A DNA stretch of 44,134 nt from an uncultured Gammaproteobacteria bacterium (GCA_964463055.1 CAYXAX010000003.1:1-44134); one strand, 5' to 3'. Positions 4,526 through 15,909 are shown, numbered from the stretch's first letter. Translations and numbers: made by a program. The notes: generated by a model not told the origin, from the sequence alone.

Positions 4526-6571
4526 ATGTCTAGCGGATTGCGTCATACACCGCCTTACACAACTGTTCTATTGTTGGCCGGAATGTGCCTCATCGCCACG
4601 CTGGCCTACCTGCCGGGACTGTCCGGAGATTTTATCTTCGACGACATTGGCAATCTCGTCCATAACGACCAAATCAAGCTGCATGACCTCAGCAGTGAAT
4701 CCATAGCAGGCGCCATGATGGCGAGTCACAGCGGACCGCTGAAACGCCCCATCAGCATGCTCAGCTTCGGACTCAATTACTACTTCGCCGGCATGGATGC
4801 GTTCTATTTCAAACTCACCAACCTCGTCATTCACCTGCTCAACGGCATCGGGCTGTTCTTTCTGACTCGACTCATACTGCGGGTATACCGGCAACGGTCT
4901 GAACACCGACTGACGGACGCCCACATTATTATCACAAGCGCGGCGATCAGCGCTGCATGGCTTCTACACCCCCTGAATCTGACCGGCGTCCTTTATGTGG
5001 TCCAGCGCATGACCAGCCTGTCGGCGCTGTTCGTCATCTGGGGACTGGTGTGCTACACGGCGGGACGGCAGCGTATCAATGACGGCCGCCCCGGCCTGGC
5101 ACTGATCCTCACGGGCCTGCTGGCATTCACCCCGTTGGCCGTGCTGAGCAAGGAAAACGGCGCCCTGCTGCCCGTGTTCATGCTTGTCATCGAATACGTC
5201 ATGTTCGGCTTTGAAACACCCCGGCCACAACAGCGGCGATTTCTATACGGCCTGTTTGGGCTGTCCATCCTCGTCCCAGCGGCGATCATCGCGGTTTACA
5301 CCCTGATCAATCCTCATTGGCTGATGGGCGGTTACCAAATCCGCCAATTCGACATGACCGAGCGCCTGCTCACCGAGAGTCGGGTGCTGTGGTTCTATCT
5401 CAAGTTGATACTGGCGCCCACCGCCAGTCAATTGGGCCTGTTTCATGATGATTTTCCCATATCTCACAACCTGCTCGATCCGCACTCTACGCTGCCGGCG
5501 GTGATCGGCCTCGGAGCGCTGTTGGCATTGGCGTTCTGGTCACGGCGCCGCGCACCCCTGATTGCACTGGGCCTGTTGTGGTTCTTCGTCGGCCACAGCA
5601 TGGAATCCACCGTGCTGCCCCTTGAGCTGGTTCACGAACATCGCAACTACCTGCCCGCGTACGGAATTCTGGTGATCGCTGTCTACTATCTGCTTTACCC
5701 TTTCGCCTTCACCACGATCCTGCGCGGACGGCAGGCCTTCGCCGCGGCATTCATTGTCCTGCTTGGCATCGGTACCGCGGTACGCGCCAGCGACTGGGGC
5801 AACCCGGCGCTGTTGGCCGTTATTGAAGCGGCCCATCACCCGGAATCCGCGCGGGCCAATCACTATGTCGCCGTTATGTATGCGGCCCTCGCGGGCGCGG
5901 CCAAAGCCCCCGAGAAAAAAGACAAGTATTACCGAATGTCTCTGTCTCACTTTGAAACCGCCGCCCGTACGGGAGGGAACGACGTGGACGGTTGGGTCGG
6001 CGTACTGGTACTGAGAGACAATTTCGGTCACCCGCCCGATGAGCACGTGGTGGACACACTGGTAGACCGCCTGCAACATGCGCCCTTTGCCAATAATACC
6101 GCAAACGATCTCTTCGAGTTGGTGAAGTGCGAGGAAAAGAAACAGTGCCATATTCCCTTGGCCATCATGGGAAGGCTTTTCACGGCGGCCCTGAAAAACC
6201 CCAGCCTCACGAGGAGCTCGCGCTCCATGGTACTCATGTCCGCCGCGGAGCACCTCGTCGATAATGTCGGCAACATCCGCGATGCCGTGGCCATGGCATC
6301 GGAGGCCGTGAGCCTCGGACCGGATAACCTCACAAATCGACTCAGCCTAATAAAACTTTTGATTGTCAGCCATCATTACGCACGGGCAAGCGATCAAATC
6401 GAAAAGGCCAGGCGGCTGGACAAATTGGGGATCTATGCCCAGCAGATCGCGGAACAGGAGCAGGCCCTGATGCTGGCGCAAAAGCCACAGCAGACGCAGC
6501 ACGACGCATTGTCCGGATCAACTGCCGGCGGCAAGAATATCGAGATCCTGGGGGACAACCGGGGCTCGTAA
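4526..6571 (+). CDS. TMTC-like GT-C fold glycosyltransferase with C-terminal helical-repeat (TPR-like) domain, paralogue 1
   Basis: About 10 or more hydrophobic helices. The first-loop acidic motif GDFIFDDIGNLVHND follows TM1. A conserved ELVHEHRNYLP block is present (DUF1736-like, from memory). The C-terminal ~250 aa are helical repeats with a CEEKKQCH motif. Start chosen at MSSGLRH. Confidence 0.7.
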   Translation: MSSGLRHTPPYTTVLLLAGMCLIATLAYLPGLSGDFIFDDIGNLVHNDQIKLHDLSSESIAGAMMASHSGPLKRPISMLSFGLNYYFAGMDAFYFKLTNLVIHLLNGIGLFFLTRLILRVYRQRSEHRLTDAHIIITSAAISAAWLLHPLNLTGVLYVVQRMTSLSALFVIWGLVCYTAGRQRINDGRPGLALILTGLLAFTPLAVLSKENGALLPVFMLVIEYVMFGFETPRPQQRRFLYGLFGLSILVPAAIIAVYTLINPHWLMGGYQIRQFDMTERLLTESRVLWFYLKLILAPTASQLGLFHDDFPISHNLLDPHSTLPAVIGLGALLALAFWSRRRAPLIALGLLWFFVGHSMESTVLPLELVHEHRNYLPAYGILVIAVYYLLYPFAFTTILRGRQAFAAAFIVLLGIGTAVRASDWGNPALLAVIEAAHHPESARANHYVAVMYAALAGAAKAPEKKDKYYRMSLSHFETAARTGGNDVDGWVGVLVLRDNFGHPPDEHVVDTLVDRLQHAPFANNTANDLFELVKCEEKKQCHIPLAIMGRLFTAALKNPSLTRSSRSMVLMSAAEHLVDNVGNIRDAVAMASEAVSLGPDNLTNRLSLIKLLIVSHHYARASDQIEKARRLDKLGIYAQQIAEQEQALMLAQKPQQTQHDALSGSTAGGKNIEILGDNRGS

Positions 6572-6647
6572 CCTATCAGCCGGACTCTACGTATCCGACC
6601 GATTGCTTTATCATGGCAGGGATCTCTCTTGTCTGCAGTGGACGCAA

Positions 6648-15029: not shown

Positions 15030-15048
15030 CCGGTATCCGGTACCGGGA

Positions 15049-15909
15049 TCATACGGCGTCTCGATGTCGCGATACGAGGTATTTTACCGGCATCGCAGGC
15101 ATCAGTAGGAGCAAGATGAATACCTTCCTCGACACCGGTATGTCGGCCCGCCACAGCAACGCGACCAACTCCACGGGTAGCCGCATCAGCGGGAAGAGGC
15201 GATCGATCATGGAACGGGACAGCCCGAACTCACTGCTGCGGTAGCGCGCCATGCGCTGTTCGTGGGTCTCGATCACACGAAACTGCCGCCGGTACCAATG
15301 TGCTGCCGCGGCATGCACGAAGTGCCCCTGCAGCACCATTTCCAACAGCATGATCAGATCCGTCCCGGCCATGTTGTGAATTTTCTTCACGCGGCGCAGG
15401 GCCGCCATGCGCATGACGCCCAGGATCGGGTGCATGTTGCCCCAGAACACGGTAAAGAAACGCCCCACCGGTTCCATGCCGCGGGTGTCACTCCAGCCAC
15501 TGCTCTTGGCCATGGGGCCGCCGTCGGCGTCGATCCAATGGGAGCAGCCGAATGCGATCACCGCCGCGGCATCTGCCTCCAGCAGCGCCACGCACTCGGA
15601 CACCAGATTGGGCGACCACAGGTCATGGCCGGCGGCCCACATGAAATAATCCCCCGAGGCGGCCGATTTCACATAGTCGAAATTCTCGGTTATACCGCGG
15701 TTGACATCGTAGCGGTGGTATTTGATACGCGGGTCCCGCAGGGCATAGCGCCGGCAGATGGCCTCGGTGTCGTCCGTGGAGCCGTTGTCGGAGATAATGA
15801 TCTCCAGGCACGGGTAGTCCTGGATCAGCAATGCATCCAGTGAAGCCTCCAGATGCGCCCCCTCGTTGTAGACCGGCATGCCGATACTGACCAGCGGTGG
15901 GCCGGTCAT
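15049..15909 (-). CDS. GT2 family glycosyltransferase
   Basis: VSIGMPVYNEGAHLEASLDALLIQDYPCLEIIISDNGSTDDT and the following DxD-type region are classic GT-A family 2. Confidence 0.8.
   Translation of the reverse strand: MTGPPLVSIGMPVYNEGAHLEASLDALLIQDYPCLEIIISDNGSTDDTEAICRRYALRDPRIKYHRYDVNRGITENFDYVKSAASGDYFMWAAGHDLWSPNLVSECVALLEADAAAVIAFGCSHWIDADGGPMAKSSGWSDTRGMEPVGRFFTVFWGNMHPILGVMRMAALRRVKKIHNMAGTDLIMLLEMVLQGHFVHAAAAHWYRRQFRVIETHEQRMARYRSSEFGLSRSMIDRLFPLMRLPVELVALLWRADIPVSRKVFILLLLMPAMPVKYLVSRHRDAV

Follow-up and report, generated by a model that had tools for sequence, protein, structure and literature searches.

A likely pilin O-glycosylation island between pilA and pilB in an uncultured gammaproteobacterium

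Why should two sets of core type IV pilus genes, pilS-pilR-pilA and pilB-pilC-pilD-coaE, be held apart by a run of genes that deal only with glycans? The question is raised by a stretch of 44,134 nucleotides from an uncultured Gammaproteobacteria bacterium (GCA_964463055.1 CAYXAX010000003.1:1-44134), the whole of which we call the window. An earlier note, made from the sequence alone, had placed an eleven-gene glycosylation island between pilA and pilBCD and suggested the pilin as its target. The list of open reading frames (ORFs) and the Pfam and NCBIfam scans agree that the island lies there and encodes nothing but glycan functions, and the coordinates given for it, 4526-15909, coincide exactly with its first and last genes; the genes, however, number ten, which is also what the note's own list adds up to. 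We conclude that the island is real and well delimited, and that it is very probably a pilin glycosylation system. The version of it that we consider likely is O-glycosylation of the pilin from lipid-phosphate-linked sugars, by an enzyme built like TfpW, the pilin arabinosyltransferase of Pseudomonas (par)aeruginosa group IV strains (10.1101/2020.04.19.049825), and with a different donor supply. The elements that carry the argument are:

4031-4453, plus strand: pilA, which encodes the major type IVa pilin, our proposed acceptor (Pfam Pilin 6.7e-16, N_methyl 5.1e-11)
4526-6571, plus strand: GTC1, a putative pilin O-glycosyltransferase with a membrane part of glycosyltransferase C (GT-C) fold (about residues 1-425) and C-terminal tetratricopeptide repeats (TPR), called from predicted structure and motifs
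6648-8621, plus strand: GTC2, a GTC1 paralogue of the same architecture, proposed as a second periplasmic transferase (TPR_19 2e-4)
8761-9630, plus strand: GT2a, a polyprenyl-phosphate glycosyltransferase of the ArnC/DPMS/GtrB type (Pfam Glycos_transf_2, PF00535, 7.5e-31)
4250-7000, no strand: a divergent allele block relative to the closest related locus, L001, covering the 3' half of pilA, the whole of GTC1 and ~350 nt at the start of GTC2

The two large paralogues, GTC1 (681 amino acids) and GTC2 (657 amino acids), are 43% identical over their full length. Their membrane domain has no match at all among the Pfam and NCBIfam models, a Pfam scan of 30 family members at E<=1 gave no GT-C model either, and PDB sequence and profile searches with the large proteins returned TPR proteins only. 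It is because no Pfam or NCBIfam model exists that the family is annotated as "hypothetical" or "TPR protein". The full-length AlphaFold (AF2) model of GTC1, with a predicted local distance difference test (pLDDT) of 85 and a predicted template modelling score (pTM) of 0.82, has eleven long hydrophobic helices up to residue 424 and helical repeats from 427 to 652. With this model Foldseek finds TPR structures only, including the TPR domain of O-GlcNAc transferase (OGT), and the C-terminal domain matches OGT-like TPRs. When residues 1-432 are modelled separately (pLDDT 80, pTM 0.87), the sole high-probability PDB matches are STT3 (from the yeast and human oligosaccharyltransferases), Pmt1/Pmt2, ArnT and PglB, with TM-scores of 0.36-0.50, and all matches outside the GT-C class have a probability of about 0.1. 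The catalytic acidic pair of GT-C enzymes sits in the loop after the first helix, and in the family alignment D39-D40 is invariant right after the first membrane helix. Other loop residues are also invariant, for example H307-D308-D309 and E371-H372-R373-N374-Y375, as well as Y291-X6-P298 in the loop equivalent to periplasmic loop 4 of TfpW. Since the number of helices in the model is odd, the DD loop and the TPR domain would lie on the same side of the membrane, presumably the periplasmic one, and this is the topology that we predict for GTC1. The initial call of two GT-C/TPR enzymes is thus upheld by predicted structure and invariant motifs, with the reservation that no family model matches the membrane domain.

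GTC1 has matches to more than 6,000 database proteins, almost all of which are unnamed or carry the names "hypothetical", "TPR repeat protein" or "protein O-mannosyl-transferase", the last of which, on several family members, comes from one source, the Joint Genome Institute (JGI). With a profile of the membrane domain, 51,377 cluster representatives are collected at a threshold of E<=1e-3 and 8,221 at the stricter E<=1e-30, and a scan of one genome per species gives at least 586 confirmed relatives, the nearest among the matches listed being 66% identical. A search of plasmids brought up no relative, and the family member of Exilibacterium (L029), used as query, did not retrieve the TfpW homologue of Teredinibacter. 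We have compared gene neighbourhoods for the best 80 of these species-genome relatives, from Beta- and Gammaproteobacteria, mapping the homologues of every window gene; the hosts include Gallionella, Undibacterium, Polaromonas, Novimethylophilus, Methylococcales, Exilibacterium and many metagenome-assembled genomes (MAGs). A pilin gene stands directly upstream of the GT-C gene (same strand, at most 600 bp away) in 62 of the 67 loci with enough upstream DNA, an arrangement that is therefore far from chance. Directly downstream of the GT-C stands a GT2a homologue in 52 of 65 loci; in 12 of the 80 the GT-C is present as two or three tandem copies, and metagenome loci show the same gene order. What comes after these genes varies: GT4 enzymes, Wzx-like proteins, methyltransferases, radical-SAM enzymes or UDP-GlcNAc epimerases. 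Because the core is kept while its followers differ, we regard pilA, the GT-C and GT2a as a conserved core and the sugar genes as a swappable cassette, so that the question whether the island varies among relatives has a divided answer: the core is conserved and the sugar genes vary.

Two of the related loci are unusual. In L060 a 980-amino-acid protein with a spermine/spermidine-synthase-like domain (12051-14993) lies directly 3' of the GT-C pair and is followed by two UDP-GlcNAc 2-epimerases and a GT4, with no GT2a homologue. In L082, a MAG contig assigned to Klebsiella pneumoniae, pilS-pilR-pilA is followed by a GT-C gene of the family; we take this combination to be unexpected for that species, and the contig may be mis-binned.

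The comparison with L001 bears on the acceptor. Nucleotide identity falls to 77-93% inside the block at 4250-7000, against about 99% in both flanks; the edges are sharp and the lowest identity is in the TPR domain of GTC1. The number of synonymous substitutions per synonymous site (dS) rises from 0.01-0.05 in the flanks to 0.13-0.59 inside the block. Gene by gene, protein identity and dS are 99% and 0.035 or 0.041 for PilS and PilR respectively, 86% and 0.13 for PilA, 86% for GTC1 (dS 0.23 in the membrane part and 0.59 in the TPR part), 97% and 0.049 for GTC2, 100% and 0.015 for GT2a, and 100% and 0.011 for RfbF, the first gene of the sugar cassette. As it is the synonymous divergence that is high, the block stands out as an imported allele and not the product of fast local evolution, and the variable half of the pilin and the adjoining GTC1 therefore travel as a single cassette. 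In Pseudomonas paraeruginosa the pilA-tfpW and pilA-tfpO cassettes are likewise exchanged jointly (PMC12369383). To judge from these alignments, joint exchange is the strongest internal argument for GTC1 acting on this pilin. Together with the pilA-GT-C-GT2 order kept in distant Beta- and Gammaproteobacteria, it bears out the suggestion that the pilin is the likely target. The lesser divergence of GTC2 suggests that this paralogue may see a less variable acceptor, perhaps the first sugar.

A second and milder stretch of divergence from L001 occurs at 15000-16600 of the window (85-95% identity) and takes in GT2b, the last gene of the island, along with the 5' end of pilB and the divergent intergenic region between the two. 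In the Pseudomonas aeruginosa pilB loci (L085-L111), the PilB allele, as measured by identity to a PilB query, tracks the adjoining pilin cassette: about 98% identity goes with a pilin without accessory gene (one locus read), about 94% with a 232-amino-acid accessory gene alongside, and about 89-90% nearly always with a Wzy_C (TfpO-type) gene. The recombination block of P. aeruginosa seems also to extend into pilB.

If the pilin is the acceptor, what would the donor be? The remaining island genes are:

9724-10491, plus strand: glucose-1-phosphate cytidylyltransferase of the RfbF type, which makes cytidine diphosphate (CDP)-glucose (TIGR02623, 337.7 bits against a cut-off of 300.25)
10536-11768, plus strand: nucleoside diphosphate (NDP)-hexose 3-C-methyltransferase of the TylC3/KijD1/TcaB9 type (Pfam Methyltransf_13, Methyltransf_14)
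11765-12316, plus strand: RmlC-type 3,5-epimerase (TIGR01221, 188 bits against 155.75)
12338-13315, plus strand: RmlD-type 4-ketoreductase (TIGR01214, 260.8 bits against 224)
13330-14067, plus strand: CmcI/rhamnosyl-O-methyltransferase-like methyltransferase (Pfam RMNT_CmcI 3.4e-90; PDB CmcI 8.6e-13)
14109-15029, minus strand: polytopic membrane protein, distantly MprF/LPG_synthase_TM "flippase-like", a candidate translocator (PF03706 1.7e-6)
15049-15909, minus strand: GT2b, a generic GT2 of the SpsA/chondroitin-synthase type (Pfam and PDB matches)

GT2a has ArnC and the archaeal dolichol-phosphate mannose synthase, DPMS (both ~5e-15), and GtrB as its best PDB matches; its residues 5-278 align with 28-313 of GtrB (5ekp), that is, over the full length. 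These matches and the hydrophobic segments near its C-terminus (residues 210-240 and 255-273) are our grounds for calling it a polyprenyl-phosphate glycosyltransferase. Its best NCBIfam matches, AglJ and PpgS, are both under their cut-offs (126 bits against 325 for AglJ). The likeness to ArnC, DPMS and GtrB holds for GT2a; GT2b is not of the DPM1/GtrB type. As a second DPM1-type synthase GT2b is ruled out, its PDB matches being of the SpsA and chondroitin/heparosan synthase type and not ArnC or GtrB. It co-occurs with the CDP-sugar cassette in L001, L029, L044 and L061. The flippase-like protein found no match in the PDB. It is 30% identical to the equivalent gene in the same cassette of L029, and with the L061 protein, which is above the Pfam cut-off, it shares a short C-terminal stretch only (20 of 59 residues identical, E 1e-4).

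The 3-C-methyltransferase is close to mycarose 3-C-methyltransferase (PDB 4rv9, 1.4e-88), with KijD1 and TcaB9 also matched. From the gene set of the cassette, the CmcI-like O-methyltransferase included, we predict a CDP-activated 6-deoxy-3-C-methyl-O-methyl-L-hexose. This product would resemble vinelose, known as CDP-vinelose from Azotobacter vinelandii, and 3-C-methyl, O-methyl 6-deoxyhexoses are a class of sugar not known on any protein. Related loci contain variants of the cassette with an aminotransferase and a formyl- or acetyltransferase instead of the reductase. The loci in question are L068 (13100-21000), L061 (12900-21500) and L044 (5800-12700), all of which keep the cytidylyltransferase, a 4,6-dehydratase, the 3-C-methyltransferase and the epimerase, and instead of the reductase have a DegT aminotransferase together with a formyl-, hexapeptide-acetyl- or GNAT-transferase. 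This swap leads us to predict 4-acylamino variants of the branched sugar in these three loci.

The proposed mechanism has three steps. GT2a, whose enzyme class is clear, would act at the cytoplasmic face of the membrane, passing a sugar from its nucleotide-activated form to undecaprenyl phosphate; the lipid-linked sugar would then be flipped, with the minus-strand membrane protein as a weak candidate for this task; and GTC1 would transfer the sugar in the periplasm, before pilus assembly, to Ser or Thr residues of the pilin. Mature PilA has 133 amino acids, and Ser and Thr make up 35% of its globular part. We infer the transfer step from the fold, the motifs, the conserved gene order and the joint exchange with pilA. 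The three-step logic of lipid-phosphate sugar, flipping and periplasmic GT-C transfer, which the earlier note had put forward, fits, and the type of GT2a agrees with it. The swappable accessory cassette may turn CDP-glucose into the 6-deoxy-3-C-methyl, O-methylated hexose of the L series, and GT2b and the flippase-like protein, travelling with the cassette, could supply this second, rare sugar. GTC2 probably adds this second sugar or, alternatively, serves a second site. Type IV pili are of major importance as phage receptors and as adhesins, and a likely benefit, by analogy with Pseudomonas, would be an altered pilus surface as seen by pilus-specific phages. Pilin glycosylation in Pseudomonas is reported to block such phages (10.1101/150227; PMC11841053). 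A more ambitious picture, which we offer tentatively and would not bet on, is that of a widespread Beta- and Gammaproteobacterial pilin glycosylation system (in at least 586 species genomes) in which a core of GT-C/TPR enzyme and GtrB-like synthase, together with swappable cassettes and tandem GT-Cs, builds diverse pilus glycans stepwise in the periplasm, with a vinelose-like sugar in the present case and TfpW as an arabinose-using offshoot.

Several observations weigh against the system as we read it. The Foldseek E-values of the GT-C matches are weak (9e-3 to 0.75) and sequence models do not recognise the membrane domain; the GT-C fold is therefore supported and not proven. Adjacency to pilA is linkage, which says nothing direct about the acceptor. 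Pairing of the GT2 enzymes with their donors and the role of GTC2 are guesses, and L029 and L061 have GT2a, GT2b and the flippase-like gene together with a single GT-C. The flippase-like call itself is weak, with a score of 28.1 bits against the Pfam cut-off of 33.4 for PF03706. Finally, tblastn with the dehydratases of L068 and L029 found no CDP-glucose 4,6-dehydratase in the island or in the 44-kb window, whereas the islands of L029, L044, L061 and L068 have this gene immediately after the cytidylyltransferase. The enzyme is obligatory for the pathway, and the island is thus not the self-contained system that was first described; without it the special sugar may not be made, and the cassette either relies on a gene elsewhere or is decaying. 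In L001, moreover, single-base gaps interrupt the O-methyltransferase and flippase-like genes (18750-20600 of that locus, corresponding to 13250-15250 of the window); these gaps could be long-read assembly errors or decay of the accessory cassette.

It might accordingly be supposed that only GTC1 and GT2a are active on the pilin and that the CDP-sugar genes, GT2b, the flippase-like gene and possibly GTC2 are a decaying remnant, so that the branched sugar is not made. The absence of a dehydratase that sister islands have kept and the frame-breaking gaps in L001 would suit such a history. Nevertheless, every cassette gene in the window is an intact ORF, the five genes with a full-length match are 98.5-100% identical to L001 at the protein level, and nonsynonymous divergence (dN) is low in the three genes for which dN/dS was computed; as the dehydratase could lie elsewhere in the genome and the gaps may be assembly errors, we find this account rather improbable. 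Also unlikely in our view is that the GT-C/GT2 pair glycosylates something other than the major pilin, be it many periplasmic or membrane proteins in a general O-glycosylation system, minor pilins, or a lipid or glycan such as lipid A (the substrate of ArnT), and that it lies near pilA only because the two are regulated together or because recombination is frequent at this spot. Very diverse acceptors are indeed served by GT-C enzymes that use lipid-phosphate-sugar donors; ArnT is among the structural matches, ArnC is the best PDB match of GT2a, five of the 67 loci have no adjoining pilin gene, and the 51,377 profile-matched cluster representatives are far more than pilin-linked genes by themselves could explain. 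On the other hand, pilA is adjacent in 62 of 67 loci from distant taxa while the remaining neighbours change, pilA and GTC1 are exchanged as one block, and Pfam and NCBIfam scans find none of the remaining arn genes in the island. As to an ordinary O-antigen, capsule or exopolysaccharide cluster that landed by accident between pilA and pilB, the rfb-like nucleotide-sugar genes and the GT2 enzymes could at first sight suggest one, but Pfam scans reveal no initiating phosphoglycosyltransferase, Wzy polymerase, Wzx or ABC exporter or chain-length regulator. The GC content matches that of the flanks, and the GT-C and GT2a core recurs beside pilA with quite different sugar genes. We reject this very improbable alternative because initiating transferase, polymerase and exporter are all absent, and retain pilin O-glycosylation as the reading to be compared with known systems.

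Two features near pilA may govern expression of the island:

3859-3873, plus strand: sigma-54-type promoter-like site TGGCACGCTCTCTGC, from a pattern search, ~160 nt 5' of pilA
4475-4513, plus strand: intrinsic-terminator-like hairpin with a 14-bp stem and a T run, in the 72-bp gap between pilA and GTC1

The sigma-54-type pattern is found in the whole window as often as expected by chance; as it is not enriched, a function for this site is suggested only by its position downstream of pilS-pilR. A hairpin similar to the one in the pilA-GTC1 gap is present 3' of pilA in 63 of the 67 related loci, and an attenuating terminator between pilin and accessory genes is a known arrangement (PMC11841053), which the hairpin here matches. 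Read-through of this strong terminator 3' of pilA probably gives the accessory genes a low level of expression.

The island shows no compositional break, the base composition being that of ordinary chromosome (~60% GC) across the window. The pilus genes that flank it are:

675-3652, plus strand: pilS (675-2324) and pilR (2324-3652), a two-component pair with a sigma-54 activator, upstream
16225-20795, plus strand: pilB (16225-17937), pilC, pilD and coaE, downstream, with zapD after coaE

The rest of the window holds housekeeping genes (bioFHCD, rpoH, ftsX, ftsY, M16 peptidases, coaD and ggt). At 178-254, immediately 5' of pilS, is a gene for tRNA-Pro(CGG); pilin islands elsewhere often have tRNA genes at their edges. 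On the minus strand, one ORF at 21865-22881 joins a NUDIX (MutT-like) and a thiamine-phosphate-synthase-like (TMP-TENI) domain. A 200-amino-acid ORF at 38830-39432, whose match is limited to positions 284-405 of the 436-position model of cytochrome oxidase subunit I, could represent a fragmentary gene or else a short domain protein, and a CcoG-like ferredoxin gene (41333-42751) is close to it.

How does the island compare with systems already described? TfpW provides an experimental precedent, and the likeness to it was judged from the published description of that enzyme. In that description the gene is directly 3' of pilA, and the protein, with 11 predicted helices and TPRs at its C-terminus, carries a DDX motif in periplasmic loop 1; its membrane part was modelled on ArnT and its TPR part on OGT (10.1101/2020.04.19.049825). 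GTC1 likewise starts directly 3' of pilA (at 4526, pilA ending at 4453), has the GT-C fold with an acidic motif in loop 1 (D39 D40, predicted to be periplasmic) and, in the AF2 model, some 11 membrane helices with a large TPR domain C-terminal to them; ArnT-type and OGT-type structural templates, a Ser/Thr-rich pilin and the exchange of pilin and transferase as a cassette are also common to both. With TfpW's published layout present in GTC1, the claim of a route different from TfpW's was overstated, and what differs is the donor supply and the proline motif. Here a GtrB/ArnC-type GT2 is the conserved partner, there are CDP-hexose genes in place of the DprE1/DprE2 pathway, and the transferase is often duplicated in tandem. 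The complete TfpW motif of periplasmic loop 4, YX6PFX7P, occurs in none of 97 family sequences, of which only the YX6P part is invariant; its authors have linked the motif to polymerisation (10.1101/2020.04.19.049825). We also found no DprE1-like gene in the window or in 84 loci by tblastn (with Mycobacterium tuberculosis DprE1 as query), a negative of limited weight because in PA7 the D-arabinofuranose donor genes (DprE1/DprE2, DPPR synthase) are unlinked to tfpW (10.1101/2020.04.19.049825).

TMTC (GT105) and PMT (GT39) enzymes have in common with GTC1 a GT-C domain at the N-terminus, the acidic pair of loop 1 included, and, in the case of TMTC, C-terminal TPRs, and the proposed chemistry, from polyprenyl-phosphate sugar to Ser or Thr, would be shared. 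Hence "TMTC-like", as GTC1 had been termed, is apt for the architecture but not for the sequence: the DUF1736/TMTC and PMT models of Pfam, even at E<=1, have no match in 30 family members, and NCBIfam gives none. In addition, the present enzymes have no MIR domain, a bacterial host, a pilin-linked gene and a donor that is probably not mannose. TfpO/PilO also lies directly 3' of pilA (as in L085-L109) and has pilin as its substrate; however, these Wzy_C-type enzymes (TfpO/PilO/PglL), unrelated in fold and sequence, transfer preassembled O-units linked to undecaprenyl pyrophosphate. The island lacks such an enzyme, in keeping with the earlier note: Wzy_C (PF04932) is absent from all island proteins, and P. 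aeruginosa TfpO, taken from L087, matches nothing in the window. The cassette shares its 3-C-methyltransferase with the TylC3, KijD1 and TcaB9 pathways (matches of 1e-88 to 1e-68), and differs from them in CDP rather than deoxythymidine diphosphate (dTDP) activation, in its setting (pilin glycosylation instead of antibiotics) and in the missing 4,6-dehydratase.

In mechanism, the system belongs with the three-component systems of extracytoplasmic glycosylation, which combine a GT2 of the GtrB/CsbB/ArnC type with a small flippase and a GT-C transferase, as do GtrABC, ArnC/ArnEF/ArnT, CsbB/GtcA/YfhO and the streptococcal GtrB plus GT-C that act on Ser/Thr-rich regions. The logic is shared, with GT2a matching ArnC, DPMS and GtrB: a monosaccharide is coupled to a lipid phosphate inside the cell, the product is flipped, and the GT-C transfers the sugar on the outside. 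Here the proposed acceptor is a type IV pilin and the GT-C bears a TPR domain; genes for flippases of the GtrA or ArnE/F type are absent, which leaves the LPG_synthase_TM-like protein as the one candidate. We regard pilA, the GT-C and the GT2 as a minimal three-gene system. If our reading is true, TfpW, the single well-studied GT-C pilin transferase, would be one example of a much larger modular system, frequent among environmental Beta- and Gammaproteobacteria, in which the lipid-phosphate sugar synthase is the conserved partner and the sugar cassettes can be swapped, and a rare branched CDP-sugar might gain a biological role. The island is thus a variant of known pilin glycosylation rather than a category of its own; it is of wider interest for its widespread, unannotated pilA-GT-C-GT2 core and its unusual sugar cassette.

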